Shown: positions 3,848 through 37,297, counted from the stretch's first letter. The stretch: DNA of 64,000 nucleotides from a virus (IMGVR_UViG_3300044732_000643:6726-70725), one strand, 5' to 3'. Translations and numbers: made by a program. Notes: generated from the sequence alone by a model not told the origin.

Positions 3848-4846
3848 ATGCCTAATAATCCAAGAAAAGAAGCCCGTGTTGCAAAACGTGAGGCCCGTCA
3901 AGATGAAAAAAGAACTGTCAATCAGAAAAAAAAATATGACAGTTTTGTTAAACAAGGAGATAAGGAAAAAATGAAACTTGAGAAAAAGTATTCACCTACT
4001 CAAATTAGACAAATCATAGATGAGACTCCTGCGGGAATGAGAACTCCTTGGATGAATAGTTATAAGGCACCTGCTACAATGAAAAAAGGAGGAGTTGCTA
4101 AATATCAAACGGGTGGTACTGCTAAAGCTGGTTTAGGTTCACCAAAAGCTAAAATTGCAGCTGCATCAAAAGCAATGAAGGGTATGAAGCCCGCTGCATC
4201 TAAAGTTGGTAAAACAGGTGCCGGTGCTGCTAAGTATAAAATGGGTGGTGCTAAGAAGTATCAAACCGGAGGAGGAACAGATCCGTATGCTTATAAAAAG
4301 AAAATGACTGATACTGCAAAGTATTGGGGTTCACAACCAAATGGTGAGTTTGATGACTTAGCCTATACTAGAGATAACCTCTCTGATATGGAAAACACAA
4401 ATGCGATGGACAGATCTTTTTATGACAGTTTAGGTCCTGTTGCACCAGGAAGAGCTAGAGCAGAATATGCACCTAGTTTTTCTCCAAGTAGAATAGCGTA
4501 TACTAAAAGTAAATTAGCAGATTTAGAAACACCAAAACAAAAAAGAGGAGGTGCTGCTAAAGCTACTTACAAAACAGGTGGTATGGTAAATCCTAATGCT
4601 AAAGTTTCTGCACTTAAGAAAGCTGGATCTAAAGGAGTTAAGTCTGGAGTTAATCCTAAAGCAACTGCTGCTAAGCGTGCAACGGGTAGAGTAGGTGGTA
4701 CATCTACGGCTCCTAAGAAGGCAATGCCAAAAGCTCAAATGGGCGGTAGTAAAACACCATACATGAAGCCAACACCAATTGATTCTACCCTTACTAAAAA
4801 GGATGTGAAAAAAGTATTTAAGACTATTAAGAAAAGAAAAAACTAA
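3848..4846 (+). CDS. Basic Lys/Ala/Gly-rich protein with repeated xxGG motifs (putative DNA-condensing core protein)
   Basis: 332 aa; MKKGG, KYQTGG x2, KYKMGG, KQKRGG, TYKTGG, KAQMGG; low-complexity and basic. Confidence 0.7.
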   Translation: MPNNPRKEARVAKREARQDEKRTVNQKKKYDSFVKQGDKEKMKLEKKYSPTQIRQIIDETPAGMRTPWMNSYKAPATMKKGGVAKYQTGGTAKAGLGSPKAKIAAASKAMKGMKPAASKVGKTGAGAAKYKMGGAKKYQTGGGTDPYAYKKKMTDTAKYWGSQPNGEFDDLAYTRDNLSDMENTNAMDRSFYDSLGPVAPGRARAEYAPSFSPSRIAYTKSKLADLETPKQKRGGAAKATYKTGGMVNPNAKVSALKKAGSKGVKSGVNPKATAAKRATGRVGGTSTAPKKAMPKAQMGGSKTPYMKPTPIDSTLTKKDVKKVFKTIKKRKN

Positions 4847-4851
4847 ATAAG

Positions 4852-5040
4852 ATGGAAAACTATACAACAGGGAAACTTAAGAACCCAAATGCAAGTGTAC
4901 AAGTACAAACAGTTCCGGGAAGCAAAGGGACCTTTGTTGGTCTTAATCCAGCAGCTACTGTTCAGACAGTTGCTAAAGGTAGAGTAGGAGGAACTAGTGT
5001 TGCTCCAAAAAATGCTGAGCCATCTAAAGAATTGAGATAA
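4852..5040 (+). CDS. Small protein, stand-alone paralogue of a module in the upstream ORF
   Basis: 62 aa; NPNA...GSKG...G[VL]NP.A.....GRVGGTS.APK.A matches the segment encoded at ~4585-4725. Confidence 0.7.
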   Translation: MENYTTGKLKNPNASVQVQTVPGSKGTFVGLNPAATVQTVAKGRVGGTSVAPKNAEPSKELR

Positions 5041-5192
5041 TGGCTAAGCAAATGCTTAAAAGAAAAGACGGTAGTTATTCCCAGAGAGGTCTCTGGGATA
5101 ACATCCGTGCTGCTAAAGGTTCTGGAAAGAAACCTACTCAAGCAATGATTAAGCAAGAGAAAAAGATTAGAGCTACTACTAAAAAGAAATAG
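5040..5192 (+). CDS. Small basic protein (50 aa, not in ORF track)
   Basis: ATG overlaps the upstream stop (TAATG); MAKQMLKRKDGSYSQRGLWDNIRAAKGSGKKPTQAMIKQEKKIRATTKKK*. Confidence 0.75.
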   Translation: MAKQMLKRKDGSYSQRGLWDNIRAAKGSGKKPTQAMIKQEKKIRATTKKK

Positions 5193-5194
5193 TC

Positions 5195-5347
5195 ATGGCA
5201 ACAGCTAAGAAGAAAGATAAGAACTGGATTCAGAAAGCAGTTAATCCTGCTCACAAAGGCTATTGTACTCCAATGACAAAACCGACTTGTACACCAAAGC
5301 GTAAAGCTTTGGCTAAGACATTTAAAGCAATGGCTAAAAAAAGATAA
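5195..5347 (+). CDS. Small basic protein (50 aa, not in ORF track)
   Basis: MATAKKKDKNWIQKAVNPAHKGYCTPMTKPTCTPKRKALAKTFKAMAKKR*; fills the gap between neighbours (2 nt and 1 nt spacing). Confidence 0.75.
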   Translation: MATAKKKDKNWIQKAVNPAHKGYCTPMTKPTCTPKRKALAKTFKAMAKKR

Positions 5348-5348
5348 G

Positions 5349-5855
5349 ATGAAAACACAAAAATTAAAAAAGGCGGGTCTTGGCACTATTGTTAAATCAC
5401 TTCGTGGTGCTGTAAAAGGAGCTAAGCAAGGATACAAAACAGCAAAGACACTAAGTAAGGCTAATCCTCAAGGATATAGTAATAGAGTATTTGATAATGA
5501 GTTTGCTAAAAACGTTTCTGAAAGTGTTAAGAAATCCAGTACGGTACAGAAGAAGGATGCTGTTAAAAATATCAAAAAAGGATATGGTGACAAGGGTCGG
5601 TATGAGAGACTGGACGATATGAAGAGAAGTGAGTTCTATAGAGATAGACGTAATGCTGGTAAATCAATGCCTGGTAGTAGTAGTGATGCTGCTAAAACTA
5701 AACTTAAAGCAATGGGTCTTGGTCTAGGTGTTCTTGGTACAGGTATGTTAGCTGAAGCTGCCTTTGGTTCAAAAAAGAAAAAGCCTACCACTAAAAAAAC
5801 CACTGCTAAAAAACCTACAGCTGTTAAAAAACCTACAGCTATTAAAAAGAAATAA
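5349..5855 (+). CDS. Basic protein with Gly-rich hydrophobic segment and KKPTA tail
   Basis: 168 aa; N-terminal LKKAGLGTIVK; AMGLGLGVLGTGMLAEAAF; histone-H1-like KKPT repeats. Confidence 0.7.
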   Translation: MKTQKLKKAGLGTIVKSLRGAVKGAKQGYKTAKTLSKANPQGYSNRVFDNEFAKNVSESVKKSSTVQKKDAVKNIKKGYGDKGRYERLDDMKRSEFYRDRRNAGKSMPGSSSDAAKTKLKAMGLGLGVLGTGMLAEAAFGSKKKKPTTKKTTAKKPTAVKKPTAIKKK

Positions 5856-5857
5856 TT

Positions 5858-6139
5858 ATGAAAGCGCAAAAGAAAACAAATCCTCTTACACATTTTAATA
5901 ATGTTAAAGAAGCTCAATTAAAGAAAGCTAGCAAAGGAGCTATTATAGGTAATATGAATTCACTACCTGAAGCGCAACGCGGAGGATGTAATTTTAGCCG
6001 TGCCCAGAAAAAGAATAAAAGAGCTAGAGCTTGGAGTAACTTTAAAGAAAAAGGAGCTGGTGTAGTAGGTGGTATTCTTGGAGCAGGAGCTGCGGGAGCA
6101 GGTGGTTACTTTGCTGTTAAAAAACTTAAGAAACAATAA
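5858..6139 (+). CDS. Small basic protein with C-terminal Gly/Ala-rich hydrophobic segment
   Basis: 93 aa; LKKASKGAII, EAQRGG, GAGVVGGILGAGAAGAGGYFAVKKLKKQ. Confidence 0.7.
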   Translation: MKAQKKTNPLTHFNNVKEAQLKKASKGAIIGNMNSLPEAQRGGCNFSRAQKKNKRARAWSNFKEKGAGVVGGILGAGAAGAGGYFAVKKLKKQ

Positions 6140-6141
6140 CA

Positions 6142-6702
6142 ATGCCTGTAGGTAAACTCAAAAGAAACAGAGAAGTTACCAAGTCAAGTGGCGGTAAACA
6201 CATTGAGATTAGTAAATATAATCCAATGACTGGGACTGGCGTTTTTAAAGAGAAGGATGTTGAGTACAAAACTAAGGGTAGTCCTAGAGTTAAGTATGTA
6301 GAGAAGCAAGTAGTAAAGAGAGATAATGATCTCAACTGGAAATCATCTAAGGAATCAAGAAAGTTGGTGATAGGTGGTAAGAAAGTAAAGTCTACTTCTG
6401 ACTTTCAAAAATACAAAACCGGAGGAAGCACCGCAGCTTGGACACGCAAAGAAGGTAAGAATCCTACAGGAGGTCTTAACGCTAAAGGTGTAGCAAGCTA
6501 TAGAGCAGCTAATCCTGGTAGTAAACTTAAGACAGCTGTAACTACTAAACCTTCAAAGATTAAACCTGGAAGCGCAGCAGCAGGTAGACGCAAGTCTTTC
6601 TGTAGTAGAATGTCAGGAATGAAGAAAAAACTAACAAGTGCAAAGACAGCAAATGATCCTAACTCAAGAATCAATAAGTCTTTGAGAAAGTGGAATTGTT
6701 AA
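6142..6702 (+). CDS. Basic protein with C-terminal DUF6321-like phage domain
   Basis: AWTRKEGKNPTGGLNAKG...RRKSFCSRMSGM...DPNSRINKSLRKWNC is a widespread aquatic-phage basic domain (recognised from memory); it begins right after KYKTGG. Confidence 0.7.
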   Translation: MPVGKLKRNREVTKSSGGKHIEISKYNPMTGTGVFKEKDVEYKTKGSPRVKYVEKQVVKRDNDLNWKSSKESRKLVIGGKKVKSTSDFQKYKTGGSTAAWTRKEGKNPTGGLNAKGVASYRAANPGSKLKTAVTTKPSKIKPGSAAAGRRKSFCSRMSGMKKKLTSAKTANDPNSRINKSLRKWNC

Positions 6703-6712
6703 AATATATATA

Positions 6713-7270
6713 ATGGGAGATTTTACAGCAGAAAGAAAAAGTAATGAGCAAATCATTTCTGAAAGAAAAACTGCACGCGGAAAAAAGATTTATAATAAGG
6801 TTTTTGAGGGAGGTAAAAAACCTGCTGCTAAAAAGACTACTAATAAACCTGCTGCTAAGAAACCGACTTATAGTCATAAGTATTGGGATGTCAAAAGATC
6901 AGAAGGTGAAACAGACTTGCATAATAGAACATACTTTGCTAATAAAAAAGGAGTTGTAAGAAGTACAAGCCACGGTTTAGTACATACTAGAAATGTTGGT
7001 GGAGATAGAGTTGTTTCCTTACCAAGTAAGTATACTTCTATTGATACTACTGGTTACTCAAAAGGTAAAAAAGAATTTACCATAAAGCAGAAAAAAACAG
7101 ATCCTTCAGATGGAGTAGGAGATAGAGGAAGAGGCATGAGAAGCTATACATCTTGGACTATACCTAGAAGCAAAGTTAAATCAACTTTGGCAACTATGAA
7201 AAAAGGTACAGGTATGAAACAAAAAGAAGCTGCTCAAAAAAAGAAAAAAACAACTAGTAAAAAGAAATAA
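6713..7270 (+). CDS. Basic hypothetical protein
   Basis: 185 aa, K/T-rich, KPAAKK repeats, poly-K C-terminus. Confidence 0.65.
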   Translation: MGDFTAERKSNEQIISERKTARGKKIYNKVFEGGKKPAAKKTTNKPAAKKPTYSHKYWDVKRSEGETDLHNRTYFANKKGVVRSTSHGLVHTRNVGGDRVVSLPSKYTSIDTTGYSKGKKEFTIKQKKTDPSDGVGDRGRGMRSYTSWTIPRSKVKSTLATMKKGTGMKQKEAAQKKKKTTSKKK

Positions 7271-7272
7271 TC

Positions 7273-7977
7273 ATGGCAAAGATGGCATGCGCTCAATGTG
7301 GTGGCGCAAAAAGAATGAAAGCTGGTGGTACCTCTACTGAAGATCCTGTTTCTAAAAAAACAATTAGACAGGGTATGAGAGCTGAAAGAAAAATGGACCG
7401 CCAGGATAAAAGGTGGGACAGAAAATATGAAAAACAAAAAGCTGAAGAACTTATGAAATCTAAAAGATTCAAAGAAGGTGGTATGACCGGAATTATTGGT
7501 ATGCCTAAATATGGTAATAATCCAAGAACACAAGAAGGACGCATGCTTAAGAAAGGCGGATCACTTCCTGCTAATACAACTGGTGTAAAAAAGACATATG
7601 CTAAAGGTGGAGTAACTGGATCATTTGCTCCTAACCGTGCGGTAATGGCATCATGTAAAAATGGTAGTGTAAGAGATGCTAGTGGTAGATGTGTTATGGA
7701 ACGTAAGATGGCACTTGGTGGTGTTGCTAAAAAACAAAATGGTGGTCCTAAAATGGTTAGTTGGATGAAAGATGGATTAAGTAAATCAACTGGTAAAAGA
7801 AGAATCATTGATAGTAAAGTACCAATGACAGGTCCTGATGCACCAATGGGAAAGACACCAATGGCGCGAAAAGGTGGTGCAACTAAAGCTACAAAGTTTG
7901 CTGCACTAGCTCCACCATATGACAAAGCTACAGCTGCTGATAGAATTGCAGGAGCTAAGAAGAACAAGAAAAAATAA
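7273..7977 (+). CDS. Basic K/G/M-rich protein with repeated xxGG motifs
   Basis: 234 aa; CAQCGG, MKAGG, FKEGG, LKKGG, YAKGG, MALGG, KQNGG, ARKGG. Confidence 0.7.
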   Translation: MAKMACAQCGGAKRMKAGGTSTEDPVSKKTIRQGMRAERKMDRQDKRWDRKYEKQKAEELMKSKRFKEGGMTGIIGMPKYGNNPRTQEGRMLKKGGSLPANTTGVKKTYAKGGVTGSFAPNRAVMASCKNGSVRDASGRCVMERKMALGGVAKKQNGGPKMVSWMKDGLSKSTGKRRIIDSKVPMTGPDAPMGKTPMARKGGATKATKFAALAPPYDKATAADRIAGAKKNKKK

Positions 7978-7984
7978 TTGAGTC

Positions 7985-8719
7985 ATGAAAAGTTCATTAC
8001 CTAAAGCCAACAAAGGAAAGATAGTAAAGACAGTTGCATCAACTGTTAAAGCTGCTACCGCTGCTAAGCCTGTAGTAAGAGGTGTTAAAGCTGCAACCAC
8101 AACTGCTAAAGTAGCAACTGCTGTTAAGAAAACTAGTCCTGCAAAAATGGCTACAACAGCTATTGCGAAAACTAAAAAAGCAACAACTGTAAAAAAAGCT
8201 CCTGCAGCCAAAGTAGCAAAACCTACGGAAATTCCAAAAGCTACAACCGCTCCTAAGACAACTACGGCTGCTAAACCTAAAACTACCGCACCTAAAGTCA
8301 CAGCACCTAAATCTACAACAGCAAAGCCAAAAACTTCTAAACGTGTAAATATTCCTAATTTTACAGATGATGAGTTCCGTTTAGCATTTGAAAGAATGGA
8401 ACGCACACGTTTAAAAGAAAAGTTAAAAGCTGAGGATGCTAAAGCTGCAGCTGGAAAACCTGCAACACCTAAGAAAAAAACTACTACGGCTAAACCTGCA
8501 TCTACAACAACTACTAAGAAAAAGACTACGGCTAAAAAGAAACCTGCAGAAAAGAAGTCAAAAGAAAAACCAATGACTAGAGAAGAGATCAAAGACAACG
8601 CTGCAAAGTGGAAAAAAAGACTTGGTCTTAGTGTAGGGATTGCCGGTGGTCTTGGACTTTGGGCAGCATCTAAAAGTAAAGCAAAGAAAAAAGAAGGATG
8701 GAATCCACCTTATAAATAA
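7985..8719 (+). CDS. Histone H1-like K/A/T/P-rich protein with C-terminal hydrophobic segment
   Basis: 244 aa; LPKANKGKIVK start, AKPKTT/APK repeats, LGLSVGIAGGLGLWAA followed by poly-K. Confidence 0.7.
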   Translation: MKSSLPKANKGKIVKTVASTVKAATAAKPVVRGVKAATTTAKVATAVKKTSPAKMATTAIAKTKKATTVKKAPAAKVAKPTEIPKATTAPKTTTAAKPKTTAPKVTAPKSTTAKPKTSKRVNIPNFTDDEFRLAFERMERTRLKEKLKAEDAKAAAGKPATPKKKTTTAKPASTTTTKKKTTAKKKPAEKKSKEKPMTREEIKDNAAKWKKRLGLSVGIAGGLGLWAASKSKAKKKEGWNPPYK

Positions 8720-8724
8720 TTGAG

Positions 8725-9426: not shown

Positions 9427-9876
9427 ATGGACAAACCTAGAATGTTAAAAAGAGACTCTGCTCCCACAGCAAGTTATTCAGCACCGGCAGGAGGATCAAT
9501 TGATTCTATGACAGCAGCATGTGTATCAGAGTTAATGAATGCTGCAACAAGCTTTCACAAACTACACCTTAAAGTAACTGGTACAGGATCATTTGCTGCA
9601 CACACAGCATTGAATGATTTATATGATGCATTACCTGGACATGCTGATGCTTTGGCTGAAGGATATCAAGGAGCTTCTGAGAAGTTACTTAGTTACACAG
9701 ATGCATCACCAAGATCACTTTCATCCGTAGAAGATGGTATCAGTTATCTAAGAGACATGTATGCAATGGTAACTACCTTACAAGGTAAGATGCCTTATTC
9801 AGAACTTGTAAATAGCTTAGATACTTTGAAAGACAGTATCAACACAGCTAAGTACAAACTTATTTTCTTAAAATAA
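9427..9876 (+). CDS. Dps/ferritin-like protein (DUF5856-type phage Dps)
   Basis: HKLHLKVTGTGSFAAHTALNDLYDALPGHADALAEGYQG matches the Dps H-x2-H...H-x6-Y...D-x3-E ferroxidase pattern in a four-helix bundle. Confidence 0.8.
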   Translation: MDKPRMLKRDSAPTASYSAPAGGSIDSMTAACVSELMNAATSFHKLHLKVTGTGSFAAHTALNDLYDALPGHADALAEGYQGASEKLLSYTDASPRSLSSVEDGISYLRDMYAMVTTLQGKMPYSELVNSLDTLKDSINTAKYKLIFLK

Positions 9877-17574: not shown

Positions 17575-18242
17575 CAACTGTTGGAGAAGCAATAACAAGA
17601 GTCAGAGCCGCACTTAAAGCTGTAAAGGAGGATGCCTTCCTAACTGATAGGAATATCTACTTTGCTATAAGTAAATACGGAAAGACTCTTCTTAAGAGAG
17701 AAGACAACCAATACAGATTGATGAAGATCAGTTCATTGTTTTCTGTATTACCCTATGTAGAGCTTATAGATGTTGATAAAGTAGAAGCAGGTTGTACTGG
17801 GGTTTATTCTGGATGTTATTTCAAAAGAAGTAAAGAAAAGTTGCCCACTTTGTTTGATGGAGCTATGGGTCCTGTTATACGCTTGGTAAGTTCTATAGAT
17901 GGAACTACACAGTTGTTCAAGACAGAGAGACCTACCTTTGCATCTATGGCAAAGACCACAACATTCAAATATAATAAGAGACCGTACTTCTGGTACTTAG
18001 ATGGGTACTTGTATGTACCTAATGTAGATTGGGATGCTGTAAGAATAGAAGCTATCTTTGAAGGAAACACTTCTGATTTTCTTTGCCCTTCACCACAGTC
18101 TTGCGATCTTAAACAAACTTTACCATTGCCATTTCCTGACTATATTTTTTCAGAGATTGAGCAGTATGTAATTAAAGAATTTACAATTACCATGGGAATA
18201 CCAGTTGATGGTTCTGATGATAATCAAAACATACTTAGATAA
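17571..18242 (+). CDS. Tail ring/tubular protein
   Basis: 223 aa; ATGA overlap; YFWYLDGYLYVPN and AIFE motifs of crAss-like ring proteins; synteny. Confidence 0.6.
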   Translation: MTTVGEAITRVRAALKAVKEDAFLTDRNIYFAISKYGKTLLKREDNQYRLMKISSLFSVLPYVELIDVDKVEAGCTGVYSGCYFKRSKEKLPTLFDGAMGPVIRLVSSIDGTTQLFKTERPTFASMAKTTTFKYNKRPYFWYLDGYLYVPNVDWDAVRIEAIFEGNTSDFLCPSPQSCDLKQTLPLPFPDYIFSEIEQYVIKEFTITMGIPVDGSDDNQNILR

Positions 18243-24926: not shown

Positions 24927-27844
24927 TGTATAATAAGCGCTCCTTATCTAAAGATACTAAAGCTTCTAAAGCTCCTAAGAGTATATCTAAACCAAAAGAT
25001 ATTATACTAGACCCTATGGGTCAATGGAAATACCCTGGACAGAACACGAGAATCCCGGGGAATGATATTACTATGCAGGGAGTAAACTATCCTGTACTGG
25101 GTGTAGGTTCTAATGGTCAACAGCAAATGATGTACCCTGGCCAAGACTATAAGTTTCAAGGTGCAGAATATGTAGATGAATATCCGCAGATGAAAAAAGG
25201 AGGTGGCTTAAAATCTAAGAAGTATTCAAGAGACTTAGAAGCTACTAACTATCTGTTTCATGAGTCACCTTTATTTAAGAAACCTAAGTCTAAGAAGAAA
25301 AAGATCTATCATCCAAAGGCTAAACATTATCAAGAAGGCGGAACACCGTATAACTACAACCCATATGTTTCTAATGAACCAGAAGTAGAGGAAACACCAA
25401 GAGAATTTAATCCAATAAGAACTGAAAATGATCCGGAAGACTATCAGCAGTTCTTAGATTATTCTAATACAGCTCCTGAAAATAGAAGACCGGGTGAAAA
25501 CTATACTTACGGTAACTCTAATGATTATGACCATTATGGTATGTGGGATGCATTGGGTAAACCACAGAACTTTAATCAAGCATTAGAAACAAACCCATGG
25601 TGGCAACCTGATGAGTATGACCAAATGTACCACGGCTTTAGTGTTAATCCTAACACAGGAGTATTTCTTAAGTCAGGTAAACCTGGAATGAAACCCGGGG
25701 ATACTACATGGATGGAAGTAAAAGACCATTACCTTAGTGATAGATCTAACTCAAGCAACCTTACATTTAATCCTGACATCAATAGATTCCAGTACACACC
25801 TAATGAGAACTATATAGAAACAGAACTTACACCAGAAGAAATACAGCAGTATAAAGATGGTGGGTACATAGTAGAAGAGTTGAATGACTATAAAGCAGGT
25901 GGTGCTTTACTTACTAAGAAAGTAACATGTAAAAAGTGTGGTTGGAAATGGGATGCTGCAGATGGTGGTGATGATGTTACTACATGTCATAAGTGTGGTG
26001 GTCAAGGATTAATACATGCTCAGAGAGGAATAACTGTTAGCTCTCTTAATGATCCAAGACTATTGGCTTATAATGATAGCTTACAAATATTCAATGCTTC
26101 AAATAAAGGTTTGAACACTATTGCTAGAGGTGCTTATCCTGAAGATGTTTATGGTAATTTTATACACACTTTTAAAAGAGATAATTCTACATCAGATGAT
26201 GATTATATTGGTCCAAGATCAAGAATAAGAATGGAACCAAGTGGCTATGCAGGAGGAGATTATGCTTTCCCAATGTTTGATAAACCTAAAGTTAAAGTAA
26301 CTTATCAAGAACCTATACCAGAATTAAAAGTTAGACCACTTGACTCTGGAATTCCTGCATCAGCTAACGAGATTACTCCATTGAACTTAGGTATGCCAGT
26401 AAATAAGCCTACAACAATTGAGGCAGAAGACATAAGTAGTAAAATACCTATCTACAAGGAAGTAGTAGACTATGGATATTATTCTGATGGAACACCTTAT
26501 ATAAAAGGACGTAAACAAGTAATTGTAGGTTATGAAAATGTAGGTGGTAAGAATTACAAACGTGTACCTCTTGATCAAAAATCAATGAGAGGTTATAAAA
26601 AAGGTGGGCTTGTTAAAGCTCAGAATGGTAAATCATTTGGTGTGACTCAAGGTAACTATGGTAATACTTACTATGTCCATCCTGATAGACCTAATAGTAT
26701 ATATGTTAAAGAGGATGGTAAGTGGCTTATTAAAAATAGCAGCACAGGTTTTTATTTTGAACCAATTAAAGATCCAAAAGGAGAAAGAACAAAGAACTTA
26801 AACAAAAATGCAGTTAAGGCAACTCCCTTTCAAGTTGCTAGATTGGATAATTTAAGCCCTTATGAAAATCAAAGACAAAGTCAACATGTAGCAAATGTTG
26901 CAGGTGGTATGGATCCTAAGAAGTCTGAAAAACAACTTAGGAGTTCTATGGAAAAAGCAACATTTGACTACTGGTTTGAAACAGATGATTCTCAAATGCA
27001 AGGTAATGATGTTGCTAACGCAAAACAACTTTATGATAAAGGACTAAGTTTTCATGAAGGTTGGATGAATTCTCCAATGTATAAAAAAATGTTAGCTAAT
27101 TCTATAAGCAAAGATGAATCTAAAATAGGTGAACAAAGAATAAAGAATTTTAATACAATTCCAAATCTACTTTTTGAAAAACAACCTGAAGATGAACCCC
27201 GTACTGGGGGTTTCTCAATGAGCAATAATGGACAAATTGTTATTCTTCCATATGGAGCGGGTGTAGCAGATTTATCGGGTCATGAACTAAGTCATTCAAT
27301 TGATAGACCTGATTACACTACAAGTGTAAATAGATTAATTCCTCAAGCTGATATAAATTATATTCAAAATGCTACACCAACTCTTAATAACACTCCTAGG
27401 TGGAAAGATTATTCTCCTGATTGGCAACAACTAATTCTCAAGGATTCAGGATATCTACAAAAAGAACAGGATTGGATAGACTATGTATCAGAGCCAACTG
27501 AGGTCAGGGCCCGTCTTAATGCCATCAGAGCTACGGCAAAAGAGTCAGGTACATATGATCCCTTTACGCAAGAAGTAACTCCTGAGATATATGAGATGTT
27601 ACAAAATATGAATTATGGTACTGAAGAAAAGGAAGGTTTCCATCCTTTAAACCAGTTAAAAGATATATACTCGGATGAGCAAATTATGGAAATGTTAAAT
27701 ACCATTTCTAAGAATGATAACTCTTCTGGTGACCAATTAAACATGGCTAAACTAGGAGGTATGACTATGGGCCAGGAAGTAGACTTAACTCCAGAGCAAG
27801 AAGCTTACTTAAGAAAACTAGGATACAAACTTGAAAGAATATAA
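24926..27844 (+). CDS. Modular virion cargo protein with Zn ribbon and C-terminal zincin (HELSH)
   Basis: 972 aa; cassettes separated by MKKGG, HYQEGG, YKAGG, HAQRG, YKKGG, KAQNG, MAKLGG; CKKC...CHKC; HELSH at 27281-27295 followed by PTEVRAR. Confidence 0.7.
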   Translation: MYNKRSLSKDTKASKAPKSISKPKDIILDPMGQWKYPGQNTRIPGNDITMQGVNYPVLGVGSNGQQQMMYPGQDYKFQGAEYVDEYPQMKKGGGLKSKKYSRDLEATNYLFHESPLFKKPKSKKKKIYHPKAKHYQEGGTPYNYNPYVSNEPEVEETPREFNPIRTENDPEDYQQFLDYSNTAPENRRPGENYTYGNSNDYDHYGMWDALGKPQNFNQALETNPWWQPDEYDQMYHGFSVNPNTGVFLKSGKPGMKPGDTTWMEVKDHYLSDRSNSSNLTFNPDINRFQYTPNENYIETELTPEEIQQYKDGGYIVEELNDYKAGGALLTKKVTCKKCGWKWDAADGGDDVTTCHKCGGQGLIHAQRGITVSSLNDPRLLAYNDSLQIFNASNKGLNTIARGAYPEDVYGNFIHTFKRDNSTSDDDYIGPRSRIRMEPSGYAGGDYAFPMFDKPKVKVTYQEPIPELKVRPLDSGIPASANEITPLNLGMPVNKPTTIEAEDISSKIPIYKEVVDYGYYSDGTPYIKGRKQVIVGYENVGGKNYKRVPLDQKSMRGYKKGGLVKAQNGKSFGVTQGNYGNTYYVHPDRPNSIYVKEDGKWLIKNSSTGFYFEPIKDPKGERTKNLNKNAVKATPFQVARLDNLSPYENQRQSQHVANVAGGMDPKKSEKQLRSSMEKATFDYWFETDDSQMQGNDVANAKQLYDKGLSFHEGWMNSPMYKKMLANSISKDESKIGEQRIKNFNTIPNLLFEKQPEDEPRTGGFSMSNNGQIVILPYGAGVADLSGHELSHSIDRPDYTTSVNRLIPQADINYIQNATPTLNNTPRWKDYSPDWQQLILKDSGYLQKEQDWIDYVSEPTEVRARLNAIRATAKESGTYDPFTQEVTPEIYEMLQNMNYGTEEKEGFHPLNQLKDIYSDEQIMEMLNTISKNDNSSGDQLNMAKLGGMTMGQEVDLTPEQEAYLRKLGYKLERI

Positions 27845-27846
27845 CA

Positions 27847-30800
27847 ATGGCAAAGTTCAAGATAACAGGCTTACCTAAAGCGCAATATGGTAAGAACAAG
27901 ATTACATTAGAAGCATCTCCTTTTAGTCTTAATGCAAACCAAGCACAGTTAGCTAGTAGTGTTTATGGTGAATATGATCCTGAGTTTTTAATTGGGGCAA
28001 GTAGGCCTATTGGAGGTTCAAGAGATCCACGGATTGCAAACAGTCTTTCTCTTACAGCAGGTTTACCATTAAATGGAACTGCATTACCTAGTATAAATGC
28101 TGGATATAAATTTAGATATAGACCAAGTTCAATGGGTGCGGGAGCTTTTGCTCCTACTACACAATTAGATGTGGGTGCCGGTTGGGACCCAACACAAGGT
28201 TTAAACTTTCAAGCAAAAGCAAATCCAAGATGGGAGTTTGCTAATAGAAGTGCAGATGCTTACCTAAAGCATAACTGGCCTGTAGGAGCATGGCGCGGAT
28301 ATGCTGGTCCATCAGGTGGAATTAACTTAAGACAAAATTCTTTTGTTACAGGACCAGCTGCTTATGAAACTAGTGAGAAAACTGCAGGTAATCTAAATTT
28401 ATTCTATGGAGCTGAGGCAGGTATTGAAGGTAGACCTTTTAAAAAAACACCGCTAAGAGTCGGGCTTGATGCAAGTTTATTAATGAACATGGCTAAGAAA
28501 CAAGCTGAACAATCATTTAATCCAGATACTGATTTTAATAAGTCTGCTACTGGCTTTACACCAATGATTAAAGCTAAAGTAGTATATCCACTTGGTACTA
28601 AATTTCCTAAGAAAAAAGAAGAGTCAGAAGAAAAAATTAGATTAGATGCTATTAAAGCTAATGATAAAAACTATGTAGTTGACGCACCTGTTATAACTGG
28701 CCCTGGAGTAGACTGGGACTATAAAGAAAAACAACAACAATCTGGAACACCTAGAGGTTATTTACCAGGATATGAACCTGAGACAGGAAATAAGCTATCT
28801 GAAGAAGAAGTAATGCGTAGATATAACTATGGTCCAACCCTTGAATATGGTGGGACTTCTGATGGTATCTATCTTGATTTAGATGATGATGAGATAGAAC
28901 AATACAAGCAAGGTGGGTATATAGTAGAGGAACTTCCAAAAGCTCAGTTTGGTAAGAACAAAAGAAAGAAAGATCCAAACCAACCTATAGAGACAGCTAC
29001 TTCTATTATGTCAGGTACAGAACCTGTAACTCCAAATGTGGTTCAGCCTGGAACAGATGCCTTTGATCTTAACGTAGGTACAGTAAATCATGATCCTCTT
29101 CTTACAGCTGCATGGAATAGAGCTGCAGCTTATGATAATGTCATGAATAAAGCTAATGAGCTAAGAGTTCAGAATGAAAAGTTGAGTGAAGATATTTGGC
29201 AAAAGACATTGGCAGAAAGACAAGCAAACTTTGACAAAGCTGGTAAGCATGATAAGATAGAACCATTACAAACTATTCCAATTTATCAATTTGAAGAAAG
29301 ACAAAAAAAAGATCCTAACTATGTAAAGAGCTTAAAAGAACAAGGATATCTTATTACTACAGATAAAGAAAATGGAAAGGTAAACCTTTACCCAAAAACT
29401 GAGATTGAAACTAGGATTGTAAAGAATGGTCTTAGAACAAATGAGATAGTAAATAAACTTGGTATAGGTGACAAAAATTTAATTGATACAGAGTTTGCTG
29501 ATGTTATTAAAGGTGCTGATGAACAACATGCGTATCAGACTAAACAAACTCTGCAAGATCTTATGCTTGATAAAGGTTGGAGTAAAGAAAAAGCTATTGA
29601 CTATTTAGTAAACACTAAAAAGCTTGGTACCAAAGAAGGCTTAGAAAAAATCTATAACACAGACTTTAAAGACATAGATAAGAATGTAAGAAGCTATTAT
29701 GCTTATGGTGAAGATTACATACCATCATACTTAGACAAAGATGGTAATATGGTCAATGATACAAGTCTAATTGGTAAATGGAAAGACAATGATATCATTA
29801 CTCTTGCTAGAGATAGACGTTTTATTGATAGTTATGGTGCCAACATTACTTCTGTATCTCCAAATGATAATGGTAGCTTAGAGTATGGAGCACAAGTTCT
29901 TCAGAAACTAAGAAGTGGTAAATGGGGATGGAATCCTAAGACTAACAGTCTTGTTAAACTTGGAGCAGATGATGCTTACAAAGATTTAGCAATAGATCCT
30001 ACAGAGGAAGATGTTAATGAGATTAGCAGAATTGGCGATTACAGAAAATTAACTAATCAGCAATTCAATGATAAATACTATGCACCACAAAGTAAAATAG
30101 AAAAAGACTGGCAGAAAGGAAAAGTGCCGGTACAAATTAGTGCTAATGAAAATTACATGGCCACCGAGCTTGGCCAAGATGAAAATGGTAATACCGTAGA
30201 CTATGAATTTGGCATTGAAGTACCCGCAGGGACTGATCCAAATACTGGAGAGGTAATTACTAAAAGAGTATCTGCAAGTGAATTAGCTGGAAAGACAGTT
30301 TACATGACAGAAGAAGAAGCTGATAAATATAGAAGAGCAAGAGTTAAGTCTAACATGGGTGCTGTTTCTAGAAATCCTTTGTGGTATGCACCAGCAATGA
30401 TTGGTGCTCAGCCGTTTGCAGGAGGTGTACTTGGTGCTACACTAAATTATGCTCCTATATCATCAATGCCATGGTTAACTGCAGGAAATGCGTTAACAGC
30501 AGAAATGGCCTACACTGCACTTAAACCTCAAGGTGACTTTCATCAAGCATATAAAGACTTTAAAAAAGGTGATGTTTGGGAAGGTATAGGAAATAGTTTA
30601 TGGGGAGCACTAGGAGTAGCACCTTTAGGCAAAACTGCTTTTAAAACTTTTAGAGCATTAAATGATTTAAAAAAACCTGGTGGTATGGGTCTAATACCAA
30701 CAAGATCAAACTTACAGTACTCAATTTCAGGTCAACGTGGTGCTGCTGGTAAAACTGGATTAGATCAAGCACATGTAGAAGACGTAAGAAAAAAGACTAT

Positions 30801-31708: not shown

Positions 31709-34700
31709 ATGAAAAGAAGAGTAAGAGTTTACAAAGCAGAAGACGGACAAGGTCAATACCATAACCAAATGTCTCAGTTCTTAAAGAAAGCCCAGATGGG
31801 TATGGAACAACAACAAGCTCAACAGCCAGACATGCAACAAGTTGTAATGCAAGTTGCAGGATTAATCATGCCCCCACCAGAAGGTCAAGGGCAAGATCCT
31901 CAGCAGATATACCAATCTCTTGTTCAGTCTTATGGTGAGGAAGCGGCAGCACAGATTATTAATGCTGCTGTAAGCATGGCTCAACCTGAAGAAGCTGTAC
32001 CTACAGATGAAGAATTAGCACAATCACTACCTCCGGTAGATGATTTGACAATGCAGGAGCAGTTGATTCAAGAAGAAGAAGAACGTCAACAGCAGTTAAG
32101 AGATGATGAGTATGTTATAGAAGATGAAGAGTTCATGAATGATCTTCTGTATGGTGATGATACACAAACAGAAGAAGAACAACCTGAAGCTAAATATGGT
32201 GGTGCTCAACATAGAAGTTTTGTAAAGAAAGCTTTAAAGCTTGCTAAGAAACAAATGGGTGATGCCGGAAATGGTCAAGGTAAGAACACTGCTGATATAT
32301 ATGACGGTGCGCTTAAGAGATCTGAGGACTTTACAACTAACCTTAAGAATGAAGCTACCTTATCTTTATTAGAGCAGCAGTTTAAGAACATGTCTCAAGC
32401 ATCACCAACAATGCAAGGACAACAACCTTTTGCATATGGGGGATCACAGTTTGGTGGTATGACTGGTTATGACTTAAATAAGTTTATCAATGGTGGTTAT
32501 GACCCTTCTATACCTGAGTTAACTAAAGCACAGTATGGCTATCAGTTTAATAAATTATTAGAAGACCTTAATACAGATAAGAGGGGTGTTACTAGTTTTA
32601 GCCGAGGTGCTGATATGGCACAAAAGGCAGAAGATACAGAGAATCCAGACAACAAAGAATTGTATGAGCATCTGAAAGCATTAGGTGTCAATGTAGGTGA
32701 ATACCGTGAAGGTATGAACTACAAAGAAGTAGCTGATAAAATAAAAGGTGGAAAAGGTAGTGGTAATAATACAAACTATAACTATCAACCCTACTCTACT
32801 AATAATGTATGGGATGCCTTGATTCCTAACAATGCAATCTTTGGTAAGAAGTATACTATGTCAGGTCCTATGAATTATTTAGGAAATGCATTTAAGGGAT
32901 CTTTTGACCCAAGTAAAATGTCAGGCTTTGATGTAGAAAAAGAAAGATTAGGTTTTGGTCACAAGCGTTATACGTTTACTCCTAAACTTAATGGTGCTTC
33001 AGGTACTGGGGCAGGTGTAGGTGCAGGTAAAGTTGGGAGTCCAGGTAGTGCAGTAGATGCATTAGGTAGACCAGTTACTTCTCAGAAACAACTTGAGATG
33101 TCATATTTAAATCCAGCATACTTACGTCAGTCAGGCAAGGAGTTAAAAGATCTTAATCTTAATCCTTATAGCAAACAAGAAATGAGAAATGCTAGACAGG
33201 ACTTAAGACAGTACGATAGAGCTGGCAGAAAAACGGATAGAAAAAATGATTGGGCTCAAGATAAATTTGGAAATAATAGTCAAAAACAAAAGGGTGACTT
33301 TTGGCCTAAAGTAGCAGGATTCTTTTCTTCAGCACAAAAAAGAGCTGAATATGGTTTACAAACATACCAAGGTAACGTAAATGGATCTTCTGTAAATAAT
33401 CAAGAACCACCTATTGAATTTAAACCAAAGACTGCAAAAGAAGTTTGGGATAAATATGAACCAGAATTAAGAGAACAATGGGGTAGCAAAGTTGGTCAAG
33501 AGGATCAACTTGAACAAGGTGATCCACGTTTTCAAGTAGATGAAGAAAAGTACTTTAATGGTACTAACTTTTTGAATGCAGCTAATCCAATGTTAAAAGG
33601 ACTTACTGCTGGACTTGAAAGAAAGAATCTAAAGAATTTCTATGGATACCAGAACCAGACTTCTGATGATTTGAATATGGCACAAGCCCAGAGAAAGCAT
33701 GGTAACTACAATCCTAACTCTGGTTTATTTCAAGAAGACTTAGAGGGACAGAACTGGCAAAGTAAATACGGTGGTGTACCTCACATGAAGATGGGAGGAC
33801 CAAAAGGTAAAACAGGACAACAGGTAGATTACTCTTTGGGTATTTTCCCAACAGCTATGGGTGGATCAGATATCAATCAATACATTGGCAGAAAGAAACC
33901 TGAGATAGCAGATACACTTAAACCTGTACCAAGAGATGAAGCTAATCTAGAAGCTGAAAAAGGTGAAACGGCATATGGAGATCTTAATGGAGATGGCTTT
34001 CCAGAACACTATGAGATTGGTGGCAAGCGTCATTATGAAGGTGGTACTCCACTTAATCTTCCAGATGATACGTTTATCTTTAGTGATACTAAATCTATGA
34101 GAATTAGTGATCCTAAGATTCTTAAGATGTTCAATAAAAAACCTAAGAAGGGTGGTTATACTCCGGCTGAGTTAGCTAAGCAGTATGACATTAATGAATA
34201 CCGCAAGATTCTTGAAGATCCAGATTCAGATGTAGTAAGTAGAAAGACTGCAGAACAAATGATTAAGAACTTCAACATTAAACTTGGAGCTCTAGCATTA
34301 GCACAAGAATCTAAAAAAGGATTCCCGCAAGGTATCCCTGTAGCAGCTAAACCATATATGGAAGCTATGGGTATCAAAGAAGAAGATATCATACCTAAAG
34401 AAGAAGAGACTCAGCAGATGGCTCAACAAGTTATGGGTCAGCAAGGAATGCCACCACAAGGAATGGCACAACCAGGTATGATGCCAGAACAACAAATGGC
34501 TATGGCTTCTCAAGAAGGTATGATGGCTAGCCCAGAAGAAATGGGAATGAGTCCTGAAGGAATGATGAGATATGGTGGTATGCGTAGATTGAGAAGAGCT
34601 CAAGAAGGTGTTAATACTTATGACCCATATAATAGACCACAAGAAGAACTTGATGCAGCTAATCAAGCATTCTATGAAAGAACAAAAGATATTGATGCTT

Positions 34701-37297
34701 CTAAGTATTTTAATAACAATTCAAATCCAGATCTTAGAGACTATAGTAATGATATGAATCATGCTGTTAAACATGGCTACGCTAATGAGCCTTGGTTTAA
34801 TATGGGATTGAGTGAAAACCAATTGCTTAATTTTTATAAACAAAGTGATGGTAGAATAGCATTACCTGTAACTAGTAATAGTAATTCACCAGCTTGGGTA
34901 AGAGGATTAAGAAGAGAGGGCGGTTTGGCTAAAGCACAGGAAGGTGGTGTTGATCAAATGCAACAAGTAATGCAACAGGTAGAACAAGCTCTTCAACAAG
35001 GAGCTCAACCTGAAGAAGTAGCTGCACAGTTAATTCAAAGTCAAATACAGCCAGAAGCTGTAATGCAAATCTTCATGCAGTTAGGTGTACCTCAAGAAGA
35101 AGCTGCCGGTATAGTGCAATCAGTAATGCAACAAATGCAAGGTGCTCAACAACAAGGAATGAGTAAACAAATGCCAATGGCTCAGAATGGAATAATACAA
35201 AGATCTGATCCAGCTATGGAGGAGTACATTAAAACAATGAATAAGTACTATAACAGAAAAGGTGAAGACAATGAATTCCTTCCTTCTGGAGCTGGTCCAA
35301 TGACTGAAGAGCAGATGTATAACTGGAATGATATACAAGATGTTCTTCAACCTGGTAGTATTCCTCAAAAAAGTCAGTATACTCCTGAAGAAAAACTGCA
35401 ACGTATGCAAAAATCAACAGAAAATTGTCCATGTATGAAAGATGCTATTGTACAAGGAAGACTTCAGAAAGTTTGTACACCATGTGAACAAATGCCAATG
35501 GCTGCCTATGGTATGCAGATGGGAGGCTATGATATGCCTTTTAGCTACAGCCATCCTTATCAGATGGCTTATGGGGGATTTCTTGACAGATACCAAACCA
35601 AAGGTGAAGTAAAACAAAGAATCTATACTGAAGATCAATTACCAGAAGATGCCCGTATAGTAGAGAAATTTACCAGAGGTAAAAAACCGGGAGACTTTGA
35701 ATTACAAGAAGACGGTACTTATAGAAAGGTAACTAAGTATGATCTTAAACCCTCTGCTTCTAGTGCAACTAAACAGCAAACTGCAGCAGATTTTGCATCA
35801 CAGTCTGAAGAGAATAAGAAACTACTAGAACAAGCTAATGCAATTATTGCAAGAGAAATTGATAATGGGACAATTGAAGGTGACCCAGCTGGTGGTCCAA
35901 TTAAACTACTAGGTAATCTTAGCTTACCATTCAATGAAAGAATTATCTTAAGTAAAGCACTTAACTCTAACAAAGATTTTGGTACTGATAAATACAAGGT
36001 AACTAAGCAAAGTGCAACAATAGGTTACTCTAAAAAAGATGCGTCAGGAAAACTAACAGGTACCGGGTCATTTGTAGCAGGGTTTACTCCAGAAGACTAT
36101 GAGAAGCGTTACCTATATGAGCAATTGAAAGGTATGGGTGCAGATGATGAAAGAGCATTTGCTGAAATAGAAAAGATATATAATGACCCAACTCAAAAAG
36201 CTAGTGTAAGAAGAGAGTATTTAAACTTCTTAGGTGTTGCAGCACCAGCAGATGATGCTGAATTACTAGATGCTAATTTCTATAAGACACGTTACAAAGA
36301 TGTGACAACTGCTATGGAGAGGTTAGATGAAGGTACATTCAGAACTCCTGAAGCAGGTGGTAATGACTTGATATCAGGGTTTGATCACTTTGATGCAATG
36401 GGCTTTGAATATAATCCAGAGTATGAAGCTGAACAACAAGAACAGGAAGAGGAAACTACTGACACTGAAACAGAAGAAGATGTAAATGTACCTGTTCCTC
36501 AGTATGCTCCATGGTGGTTACAAGATACTATCAAGACAGCAGGAGCATTTGGTGATCTTATGGGTGTTAAGAAGTATTATCCTTGGGCACCTAAGTATAA
36601 TCCTATGATGCCGGAGCCTACATTCTTAGATCCAACAAGAGCTATAGCTGCACAATCAGAGCAAGCTAGAATTCTTGGGGATACTATGGCTAAGCTATCT
36701 CCTAACTCTTCACTAGCTGCTTCTAGATTAAGTGGTCTTCAAGGAGAGTTAGCTAAAGGAGCTTCTGATACAGCTAATCAATATGACAAAGCTAACGTAG
36801 AGATAGCTAACCAATTTGCACCAATGCAAGCTGATGTAGCTAATAAAGCTCAAGAGTATAACCTTGGTCAGACTAAAGGTCTATATGATGCTAATACAAT
36901 TATGAATCAACAGTATGACAATAGTAAGCGTGCTCTAAGAGGTAACCTTCTTAACCAGTACACTAACGCTATTACTAACCGTTGGAAGACTGATGCTCTC
37001 AATCAATTGTATCCACAGTACGCTGTTGATCCATCAATTGGGGGTAGACTTAATTTCAAAAAAGGTAAAGAACAAGATCCTACAGTTGCTAAGAAATATG
37101 GTGATTACTATGATGAAGCTTTTAAAGCTACGGGTGATGCAGATGCTGCTGCTAAGTATGCATTACTAGCATGGAAACAATCTCAAGGTATGTCTGCTAA
37201 TGATCCGTCAGAAGCAATAATGTCTCATTATGATAATATGGCACGTGGTGGAATATTTGTAATGGGTCCAAGTTTAATGCCCCCACTGATCATGTAA
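31709..37297 (+). CDS. Virion cargo protein 1-like (ejection protein), Q/M-rich
   Basis: 1862 aa; ANLEAEKGE...IGGKRHYEGGTPL...FIFSD resembles the conserved compact domain of crAss-like cargo protein 1; many xxGG tags; Q/M-rich helical repeats. Confidence 0.6.
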   Translation: MKRRVRVYKAEDGQGQYHNQMSQFLKKAQMGMEQQQAQQPDMQQVVMQVAGLIMPPPEGQGQDPQQIYQSLVQSYGEEAAAQIINAAVSMAQPEEAVPTDEELAQSLPPVDDLTMQEQLIQEEEERQQQLRDDEYVIEDEEFMNDLLYGDDTQTEEEQPEAKYGGAQHRSFVKKALKLAKKQMGDAGNGQGKNTADIYDGALKRSEDFTTNLKNEATLSLLEQQFKNMSQASPTMQGQQPFAYGGSQFGGMTGYDLNKFINGGYDPSIPELTKAQYGYQFNKLLEDLNTDKRGVTSFSRGADMAQKAEDTENPDNKELYEHLKALGVNVGEYREGMNYKEVADKIKGGKGSGNNTNYNYQPYSTNNVWDALIPNNAIFGKKYTMSGPMNYLGNAFKGSFDPSKMSGFDVEKERLGFGHKRYTFTPKLNGASGTGAGVGAGKVGSPGSAVDALGRPVTSQKQLEMSYLNPAYLRQSGKELKDLNLNPYSKQEMRNARQDLRQYDRAGRKTDRKNDWAQDKFGNNSQKQKGDFWPKVAGFFSSAQKRAEYGLQTYQGNVNGSSVNNQEPPIEFKPKTAKEVWDKYEPELREQWGSKVGQEDQLEQGDPRFQVDEEKYFNGTNFLNAANPMLKGLTAGLERKNLKNFYGYQNQTSDDLNMAQAQRKHGNYNPNSGLFQEDLEGQNWQSKYGGVPHMKMGGPKGKTGQQVDYSLGIFPTAMGGSDINQYIGRKKPEIADTLKPVPRDEANLEAEKGETAYGDLNGDGFPEHYEIGGKRHYEGGTPLNLPDDTFIFSDTKSMRISDPKILKMFNKKPKKGGYTPAELAKQYDINEYRKILEDPDSDVVSRKTAEQMIKNFNIKLGALALAQESKKGFPQGIPVAAKPYMEAMGIKEEDIIPKEEETQQMAQQVMGQQGMPPQGMAQPGMMPEQQMAMASQEGMMASPEEMGMSPEGMMRYGGMRRLRRAQEGVNTYDPYNRPQEELDAANQAFYERTKDIDASKYFNNNSNPDLRDYSNDMNHAVKHGYANEPWFNMGLSENQLLNFYKQSDGRIALPVTSNSNSPAWVRGLRREGGLAKAQEGGVDQMQQVMQQVEQALQQGAQPEEVAAQLIQSQIQPEAVMQIFMQLGVPQEEAAGIVQSVMQQMQGAQQQGMSKQMPMAQNGIIQRSDPAMEEYIKTMNKYYNRKGEDNEFLPSGAGPMTEEQMYNWNDIQDVLQPGSIPQKSQYTPEEKLQRMQKSTENCPCMKDAIVQGRLQKVCTPCEQMPMAAYGMQMGGYDMPFSYSHPYQMAYGGFLDRYQTKGEVKQRIYTEDQLPEDARIVEKFTRGKKPGDFELQEDGTYRKVTKYDLKPSASSATKQQTAADFASQSEENKKLLEQANAIIAREIDNGTIEGDPAGGPIKLLGNLSLPFNERIILSKALNSNKDFGTDKYKVTKQSATIGYSKKDASGKLTGTGSFVAGFTPEDYEKRYLYEQLKGMGADDERAFAEIEKIYNDPTQKASVRREYLNFLGVAAPADDAELLDANFYKTRYKDVTTAMERLDEGTFRTPEAGGNDLISGFDHFDAMGFEYNPEYEAEQQEQEEETTDTETEEDVNVPVPQYAPWWLQDTIKTAGAFGDLMGVKKYYPWAPKYNPMMPEPTFLDPTRAIAAQSEQARILGDTMAKLSPNSSLAASRLSGLQGELAKGASDTANQYDKANVEIANQFAPMQADVANKAQEYNLGQTKGLYDANTIMNQQYDNSKRALRGNLLNQYTNAITNRWKTDALNQLYPQYAVDPSIGGRLNFKKGKEQDPTVAKKYGDYYDEAFKATGDADAAAKYALLAWKQSQGMSANDPSEAIMSHYDNMARGGIFVMGPSLMPPLIM

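Follow-up and report, generated by a model that had tools for sequence, protein, structure and literature searches.

A Gly-Gly peptide at the joints and ends of modular proteins in an uncultured crAss-like phage: a candidate processing site

Background

crAss-like phages are believed to contain a large cargo of proteins, and the locus analysed here, from an uncultured crAss-like phage, raises the question of what a short Gly-Gly peptide is doing in two separate blocks of its genes. The window, by which we mean the whole stretch of DNA analysed (IMGVR_UViG_3300044732_000643:6726-70725), comprises 64 kb of a 70.7-kb viral contig. The first block, referred to as the basic island, consists of ten open reading frames (ORFs) within 4.9 kb (3848-8719), most of which encode proteins with 16-23% lysine. 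The second consists of three large ORFs, c1 (24926-27844, + strand), c2 (27847-31671) and c3 (31709-37297, + strand), located after a homologue of the muzzle gene. We call c1-c3 cargo, since by synteny with phage crAss001, rather than by homology, their products are most likely packaged inside the particle.

A sequence-only reading of the window had proposed that the motif serves either as a maturation cleavage site or as a capsid-targeting signal. The premise shared by both proposals, that of a selected, block-confined signal marking protein joints, was borne out, while the choice between them was not decided by the data. The Gly-Gly signal is real and apparently undescribed: as the earlier reading had supposed, no account of it for crAss-like phages was found in a literature search, with subscription-only papers and supplements falling outside that search. 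We tentatively prefer endoproteolytic processing over an uncut recognition peptide, at somewhat less than an even chance.

Enrichment and distribution of the motif

All 15 basic-island instances and 21 cargo instances originally listed were found in the translations of the respective genes. Counts were based on a strict pattern, [AYFM][QKRA].GG, and compared with the mean of 2,000 per-protein composition shuffles. The pattern was written after the list of instances was known and is thus defined post hoc, so that sequences not used for its definition provide the fairer tests. Pooled across the basic island and c1-c3, 31 strict motifs were present in 5,712 amino acids (aa), as opposed to a single one in 15,265 aa encoded by the other 18 ORFs of the window (scaffold, capsid, tail and muzzle genes, c4 and three giant ORFs; Fisher P = 7e-17), in agreement with the proposed confinement to two blocks. 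Six motifs each were seen in ORF 3848-4846 and ORF 7273-7977 (0.32 in shuffles in both cases), seven in c1 (0.23 in shuffles) and eight in c3 (0.90 in shuffles). The two copies in c2 (0.42 in shuffles) were not significant alone, with four observed versus 0.93 when GK was allowed in place of GG. Downstream of c3, c4 and the giant ORFs (2650, 3635 and >1455 aa) carried 0, 0, 0 and 1 copies. The anticipated enrichment over composition was therefore seen in four ORFs (6-8 copies against 0.2-0.9), and it recurred in related phages.

For the latter comparison, 80 related contigs were kept from 594 confirmed matches, their capsid proteins being 91-97% identical. Among these 80 loci, 39 had 7 kb or more of sequence after the capsid gene; their basic ORFs contained 315 motifs versus 25.5 expected (~12-fold), and every one of the 39 exceeded its expectation more than threefold. 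One complete relative (119,985 bp, with terminal repeats) had no motif in the 94 ORFs of its non-structural ~60 kb. Two distant cultured relatives, Leptolyngbya phage Lbo-JY46 and Cellulophaga phage phi4:1, displayed three and one motifs, respectively, in ~9,900 aa each; virion proteomics of these phages proved unusable as a proxy, since both are devoid of a basic island and have few motifs. A further resemblance, KAQYGK at residues 316-322 of ORF 18242-19282, was attributed to chance. It belongs to a conserved tail-module protein outside both blocks, and several relatives have Ser, Ala or Tyr where its Gly stands, so that it is not the same motif.

These counts bear on the simplest explanation, namely that the motif is a by-product of Lys/Gly-rich composition, or else a DNA-binding repeat of basic proteins which recurs in cargo genes by chance. 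Basic-island proteins do combine their 16-23% lysine with ~10% glycine, and weak low-complexity DNA repeats overlap some of the copies. However, shuffles yield just 0.2-0.9 copies per protein where 6-8 are observed, copies also occur in acidic contexts (EEIQQYKDGGYIVEEL) and in proteins of ordinary lysine content, and the motif is kept at the same alignment columns across diverged homologues. With the shuffles, the motif-free 94 non-structural ORFs and the 39-locus enrichment all contradicting it, we regard this explanation as very improbable.

Consensus and selection at the protein level

Codons at the motif vary synonymously: both Gly positions track background codon usage (GGT in 19 and 16 of 31 copies), and the neighbouring codons vary as well. 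No long DNA repeats were found, only the weak low-complexity repeats overlapping some copies. An origin at the DNA level (slippery site, Shine-Dalgarno-like GGAGG or recombination repeat) was rejected, because GGT is the commonest codon at both Gly positions just as in the background and because the neighbouring codons vary. Judging from the sequences, the motif is a selected protein-level signal.

Site preferences were worked out on 715 distinct Gly-Gly sites, taken from the 368 basic proteins of relatives in which they occur. Lys was preferred at position -4, Met (7.6-fold) or Tyr at -3 and Lys or Gln at -2, with Gly-Gly followed by Ser, Ala or Thr, then by Val or Thr, and then by Lys. When only motif sites were considered, basic and cargo proteins alike displayed a hydrophobic residue at -6 and Pro at -5 ('LPKAQxGG'), with charged residues excluded at +3. 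Immediately after Gly-Gly, the residues Pro, Lys, Gly, Leu and Arg were depleted to 0.2-0.3 of background, and in cargo proteins aromatic residues were enriched at that place (3.1-fold for Tyr). The inferred consensus is roughly hydrophobic-Pro-x-[Met/Tyr/Ala/Phe]-[Lys/Gln]-x-Gly-Gly-[small or aromatic]-[Val/Thr/Ile/Leu].

Motif position at module joints and ORF ends

BLAST alignments revealed c1-c3 to be mosaics, to which relatives align piecewise and in differing order. In c1, 25 of 52 distinct BLAST segment ends fell within 10 aa of a motif, compared to 7.5 for random sites (P<0.0002). The effect was weaker in c3 (10 of 48 versus 4.2, P=0.036), and clustering at boundaries was not shown for c2 (1 of 10). 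The suggestion that the motif often sits at cassette boundaries thus stood for c1 and, less firmly, for c3. A related detail was confirmed in the basic island, where the motif KYKTGG (residues 90-95 of the basic protein encoded at 6142..6702, + strand) directly precedes a DUF6321 domain at residues 105-184 (PF19846, E=1.9e-19).

Individual joints illustrate the arrangement. An HE..H..D module of c1 (26993..27760, + strand) ends in MAKLGG; when c1 residues 690-945 were aligned with seven homologues, H, E, H and D were invariant in all eight sequences, and the domain stopped at ..GG, after which each homologue carried unrelated sequence. An AlphaFold2 (AF2) model of this module had a predicted template-modelling score (pTM) of 0.72, and MAKLGG, the one site modelled, lay inside a stretch with a predicted local distance difference test (pLDDT) of <50. 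Residues 300-326 of c1 correspond to the C-terminus of a separate ORF in relative L083, and residues 554-946 to the N-terminus of a separate ORF in relative L082. Similarly, c3 from residue ~698 onwards exists as a separate ORF, with a start tag of its own (see below), in nine aligned relatives, the fusion joint in c3 (33761..33799, + strand) reading SKYGG-VPHMKMGG. The eight strict motifs of c3 (1862 aa) include MARGG, located 15 residues before the C-terminus. Motif-bearing ORFs had 15.3 motifs per 1000 aa within their first 25 residues and 11.5 within their last 25, compared to 5.6 in the interior.

Gene content of the basic island is hypervariable, with 3 to 11 basic ORFs of very different sizes across related loci whose capsid proteins are 91-97% identical. 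Collectively, the phage builds its lysine-rich head proteins and c1-c3 from swappable modules, the joints and ends of which carry the Gly-Gly peptide.

Two cassettes were seen to recur elsewhere. In c1, one Gly-Gly joint is followed by a zinc-ribbon cassette of the form CxxC…CxxC (KKVTCKKCGWKW…CHKCGG; 25925-26020, residues ~334-365), which is found again in many proteins bearing the junction tag described below and in small ORFs of unrelated larger phage contigs (L101-L104). The 50-aa ORF 5040-5192 of the basic island (…DGSYSQRGLWDNIRA…) recurs in relative L087 (L087:12221-12973), where it comes after the Gly-Gly joint of the HExxH module, suggesting that tiny basic-island ORFs and cargo modules belong to one cassette pool.

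End tags, start tags and junction tags

Borders between cargo ORFs display a strict syntax, in which an acidic end tag is followed by a basic start tag; this was seen at nearly every cargo ORF border listed, in 15 related loci. The end tag closes the ORF with ~25 residues of the form …GG..G.EVDLTPEQ…L+..GY.FE.I or …ELTPEEI..Y..GGYIVEEL, and the Gly-Gly ahead of it was invariant in seven of seven sequences at 29-61% identity. The ORF that follows opens with M..[KR][VI][RK]I.., and then LPKAQxG[GK] or YKAxGG. In the window, c1 terminates in such an end tag (27761..27841, + strand, …EVDLTPEQEAYLRKLGYKLERI), and start tags open both c2 (27847..27894, + strand, MAKFKITGLPKAQYGK) and c3 (31709..31804, + strand, MKRRVRVYKA… KKAQMGM).

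Tags are also found inside ORFs. There the 'KVRI' part is absent, and the end tag runs directly into LPKAQxG[GK] or xDYKxGG (11 of 11 cases in the window's own family). Examples are the internal junction tags of c1 (25823..25903, + strand, ELTPEEIQQYKDGGYIVEEL followed by NDYKAGG), which is where the L083 ORF ends, and of c2 (28876..28956, + strand, DLDDDEIEQYKQGGYIVEE followed by LPKAQFGK). At the c3 joint both tags have been lost. An AF2 model of the internal junction tag had a pLDDT of 56 and a pTM of 0.27 and contained one helix only; given this low confidence, a strand-helix-strand fold is suggested by the sequence pattern alone. When the end tag of c1 and the start tag of c2 were modelled as a complex, the score was 0.16 against a mark of 0.32, a result that speaks neither for nor against pairing of the two.

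The placement of the motif would also be expected of a passive joint, that is, of a flexible, recombination-tolerant linker made of Gly-Gly and a preceding hydrophobic residue, which is read by no partner and lets modules fold, unfold or thread the tail independently. Its occurrence in low-confidence or disordered stretches and at mosaic boundaries fits this explanation, as does rampant cassette shuffling in phages with 91-97% identical capsid proteins. A hinge, however, does not require the conservation seen at -5 (Pro), -3 (Met/Tyr), -2 (Lys/Gln) and +3 (Val/Thr), it would have no role in wholly disordered proteins, and the invariance of Gly-Gly ahead of the end tag (7 of 7) argues against it. 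We therefore consider a passive joint unlikely.

Breadth of the junction tag and polyvalent proteins

Searching 1.84 billion cluster representatives with a profile of the junction tag gave 869 matching proteins at E<=0.001, of which 432 reached E<=1e-10, and a single protein of 400-3300 aa was often matched 2-6 times. The best 150 tag-bearing proteins contained 703 strict motifs versus 50.2 expected, although this enrichment is not independent evidence, because the search profile itself contains Gly-Gly columns. In these 150 proteins, 71 of which end in the tag, a hydrophobic-x-x-GG sequence occurred within 18 aa upstream of 131 of 263 tags (8.7% of random windows) and downstream of 140 of 192 internal tags (19.6% of random windows).

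Of five tag-bearing proteins scanned, four carry Amidase_2, SET, VanY, Phage_lysozyme or PG_binding_1 domains, and one had a sub-threshold match to ART-PolyVal. These enzyme domains give the tag-bearing relatives a resemblance to the 'polyvalent proteins' of Iyer et al. 2017; c1-c3 of the window had no Pfam domain match. Polyvalent proteins are large, encoded beside virion genes and composed of many unrelated, rapidly shuffled domains (PMC5512222); c1-c3 are likewise large and next to virion genes, and as mosaics would resemble them in build, while the HExxH modules frequent in tag-bearing proteins may offer a further likeness. They differ in that the joint motif and the end and start tags are undescribed in the text of PMC5512222, where the words 'glycine', 'linker' and 'crAss' do not occur, and in that the motif here also fills small basic proteins.

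Candidate processing and the search for a protease

Under the processing reading, c1-c3 would be polyproteins of exchangeable modules ('polyvalent proteins'), and cleavage would turn the lysine-rich proteins into short basic peptides. End and start tags may serve as detachable handles, by which the pieces would enter the particle jointly before being trimmed of them at the Gly-Gly sites on the inner sides of the tags; the principle would be that of the T4 capsid-targeting sequence, written in another code. A processing site would account at the same time for the solo arrays in disordered basic proteins, for the module joints and for the inner-side placement at both tags. Fusion and fission at the motif would be tolerated because they cost little if the products are cut anyway, the higher motif density near ORF ends resembles that of propeptides, and restriction to internal head proteins has a precedent in the appearance of the T4 and SPN3US prohead-protease codes. 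Also counted in favour are selection acting on the protein sequence, the bracketing of tags by hydrophobic-x-x-GG, the low-confidence stretch around the one site modelled, the depletion of Pro, Lys, Gly, Leu and Arg after Gly-Gly, and the zincin proposal for polyvalent proteins together with the HExxH enrichment given below. The motif, its restriction to two blocks, its placement at joints and ends and the tag syntax are observed; cleavage itself and the enzyme responsible we infer.

A number of observations weigh against cleavage. None of 564 motifs is at a C-terminal end, and no ORF ends in GG or begins right after a site. Constraint after Gly-Gly nearly equals that before it, as would be expected of a bound epitope no less than of a cut site. 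Some motifs in the basic proteins are merely three residues apart, and would release very small products if cut. In nearest orthologues (66% overall identity) the motif Gly-Gly was kept at 14 of 17 sites, only modestly more often than other Gly-Gly (13 of 23). The crAss001 virion paper contains no occurrence of cleav-, proteol- or protease, and models the cargo protein C1 as one chain.

The enzyme side adds to this. Family searches covered five genomes, of which four or five per search were at least 90% complete. They returned 0/5 genomes for the CE-clan family Peptidase_C5 (PF00770) and 0/5 for the CE-clan family Peptidase_C48 (PF02902), PF03290 not having been searched; 0/5 for the S78 or HK97-type head protease (PF04586); and 0/5 at E<=1 for the C39 peptidase of double-glycine leader type (PF03412). 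The analogy with adenain and pS273R drawn in the sequence-only reading accordingly found no backing in these families, and the hydrophobic residue is placed two positions, not one, before Gly-Gly. Pfam scans of the complete relative covered 65 of its 94 non-structural ORFs, those at least 100 aa long, and detected no head protease; in the window ORFs scanned no protease family was matched, PF03420 and ClpP not being searched on their own.

The Pfam matches in non-structural ORFs of the complete relative included ClpS, a MoxR/VWA pair with DUF2201_N, PhageMetallopep and an M15 peptidase. As universal protease or adaptor candidates, ClpS and DUF2201_N were rejected, each being present in only two of the five genomes. 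The HExxH module of c1 was likewise discarded as a universal protease, as it was found in one of five near-complete genomes and there only partially, and the HExxH region of ORF 59633 was present in one of five. The 3635-aa ORF contains HEAWH at 51624..51638 (+ strand), a possible zincin site without a Pfam match; the region is conserved in all five genomes, but HExxH is intact in three, the second His being Glu in the other two. Two of six complete cargo blocks are devoid of HExxH. The HExxH domains, suggested earlier as candidate proteases, are thus not universal. No protease can be named, and no universal candidate emerged.

The complete relative (G005, L111-L113) encodes a ClpS homologue together with the MoxR, VWA and DUF2201_N set. 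Aromatic N-terminal residues are ClpS-type N-degrons in the N-degron pathway, and the aromatic residues after Gly-Gly in cargo proteins would become such N-degrons if the sites were cut.

HExxH sequences do stand out in the tag-bearing proteins. HExxH was 32-fold enriched in the best 150 (54 copies versus 1.7 expected, in 48 proteins). Foldseek gave no match at E<=0.001 for the c1 HExxH module, which also lacks a Pfam match, and its weak top matches were nearly all zinc peptidases. For polyvalent proteins, passages in Iyer, Burroughs, Anand, de Souza and Aravind 2017 (PMC5512222) propose that zincin domains process them into units. One could speculate that the Gly-Gly motif is the cut-site code of HExxH zincin-like modules in packaged polyvalent proteins, with polyprotein cargo and basic DNA-coating peptides being matured, or unpacked after injection, by a capsid-borne metalloprotease, and with the tag pair acting as a detachable coupling through which the pieces are loaded in the order of their genes. 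We hold this more specific version to be unlikely. If true, polyvalent proteins would have their first defined processing code, and the crAss-like group its first case of proteolytic maturation.

An uncut recognition peptide

Many of the same observations could be produced by a peptide that is bound and never cut. In this alternative, the motif and tags form a docking or loading handle for a repeated procapsid site (scaffold, inner face of the capsid or portal), or a head-to-tail link between cargo proteins for ordered loading and exit. Docking explains the strict end-tag/start-tag syntax at ORF borders at least as well as cleavage does. Fused ORFs lose 'KVRI' yet keep LPKAQxGG (11 of 11), and the c3 joint has lost both tags, as though tags stood in for a covalent link. 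Both flanks of Gly-Gly are constrained, the many copies per basic protein suit multivalent binding, and docking needs no missing enzyme, no protease having been found. Furthermore, passages on the crAss001 virion describe short segments of its cargo protein C1 bound to the tail barrel and portal (PMC10172136).

Docking meets difficulties as well. c4 and the giant ORFs, which occupy the position of the packaged RNA-polymerase proteins of crAss001, carry 0, 0, 0 and 1 motifs, arguing against a general loading tag and making a universal packaging tag doubtful. The junction tag on its own is not predicted to fold (AF2 pLDDT 56, one helix), and tag-free motif arrays in the basic proteins are left unexplained. 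Overall, we rate docking as somewhat less likely than the processing reading.

Whichever holds, a short, conserved and easily mutated joint peptide makes the choice, order and release of cargo testable. If the peptide is cut, a maturation protease has gone unrecognised in this lineage, which would also follow a polyprotein strategy unreported for crAss-like phages in the literature searched. If it is bound, it constitutes a modular docking code by which foreign domains are loaded into a capsid, usable to package chosen proteins. Either way, the motif can guide the division of very large 'hypothetical' phage proteins into functional modules.

Comparison with known systems

Prohead proteases of the T4 and phiKZ-like type recognise the code motifs [L/I]xE and AxE. 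In the systems of T4 gp21 and of the phiKZ-like phage SPN3US gp245, a short motif is confined to internal head proteins (PMC9026906, PMC5694885, PMC10052503). The candidate processing code described here resembles them in its confinement to head proteins that are internal or ejected, in frequently following a short leader at the N-terminus and lying between domains, and in having small basic internal proteins among its carriers. It differs from the T4/phiKZ type by ending in Gly-Gly instead of Glu, and no S77/S78-type or other head protease was detected in the genomes searched. To our knowledge, end and start tags at ORF borders have no counterpart in prohead-protease systems.

Adenovirus protease and African swine fever virus (ASFV) pS273R process core proteins at Gly-Gly, the adenain consensus being (M/I/L)XGG. 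Here, too, Gly-Gly sites are found in basic, putatively DNA-associated core proteins and putative polyproteins of a large dsDNA virus. Unlike in those viruses, the hydrophobic residue is located two positions before Gly-Gly (-3 from the first Gly), compared to one in (M/I/L)XGG, Peptidase_C5/C48 were not found in the five genomes, and the virus realm is different.

The genes after gp44 of crAss001 encode cargo proteins located inside the virion, as set out in passages of Bayfield et al. 2023 (PMC10172136). The ORF 19284-24926 of the window (1880 aa) is a muzzle homologue with matches to crAss001 gp44 at E=1e-6 and E=0.006, and c1 begins at its stop codon, i.e. at the same post-muzzle gene position as the crAss001 cargo proteins C1 (gp45) and C2 (gp46), which directly follow the muzzle gene. 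crAss001 differs in having no basic island after its capsid gene. Its 15 structural ORFs contained only three strict motifs, all in gp45 (weak enrichment, 3 versus 0.77, P=0.04). A c3 conserved module was considered as a homologue of gp45's portal-bound domain, which was not borne out by BLASTP (E=1.8) or hhalign (probability 0.27%), c3 being the only cargo protein compared. Separately, [Tyr/Phe]-Gly-Gly sites of gp45 (L115, 41987-44515) at residues 209-210, 427-428 and 562-563 adjoin the ends of the virion-resolved segments 214-245 and 425-552, a placement which may be due to chance because gp45 has 20 Gly-Gly in 842 aa.

Proteins of the basic island and neighbouring genes

The island opens with a lysine-rich protein (3848..4846, + strand, 332 aa, 17.5% K, six strict motifs) for which no match was obtained in Pfam, PHROG or phage tblastn searches. 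When this ORF and c1, c2 and c3 were compared by tblastn with 50,697 phage records, none had a match, so that these four proteins are missing from cultured relatives. A small basic protein (5858..6139, + strand, 93 aa) contains one motif, EAQRGG. The basic protein encoded at 7273..7977 (+ strand, 234 aa, six strict motifs) is predicted to be disordered (Atlas model pLDDT 0.49, pTM 0.18), and the Atlas neighbours of this model were viral hypothetical proteins only. The very basic protein at 7985..8719 (+ strand, 23% K) has an N-terminal LPKANKGK, a variant of the start tag.

The DUF6321 domain of ORF 6142-6702 has matches in 524 phage records, mostly T4-like cyanophages and pelagiphages, and among the matches listed the alignments of these phages mostly begin at residue 97/98. 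The Gly-Gly motif was not present in three cyanophage homologues examined. DUF6321 terminates lysine-rich proteins in those phages also, one of which is annotated as structural.

Upstream of the window, the same contig encodes the large terminase, the portal and a scaffold-like gene, with no gene between portal and scaffold/capsid. The crAss-type major capsid protein (1094-2710) was identified as the PHROG major head protein, with 23.8% identity to a crAss-like phage capsid protein, and the gene is followed by a conserved ORF of 339 aa. No relatives of solved structure were found for ORF 2801-3820 or the scaffold-like ORF. Further head and tail genes are located between the basic island and the muzzle homologue, and include a Dps/ferritin-like protein within the head-tail module (9427-9876; phrog_858, E=2.4e-19). 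The annotation of crAss001 also has a DpsA (gp7), but at a different place in the genome.

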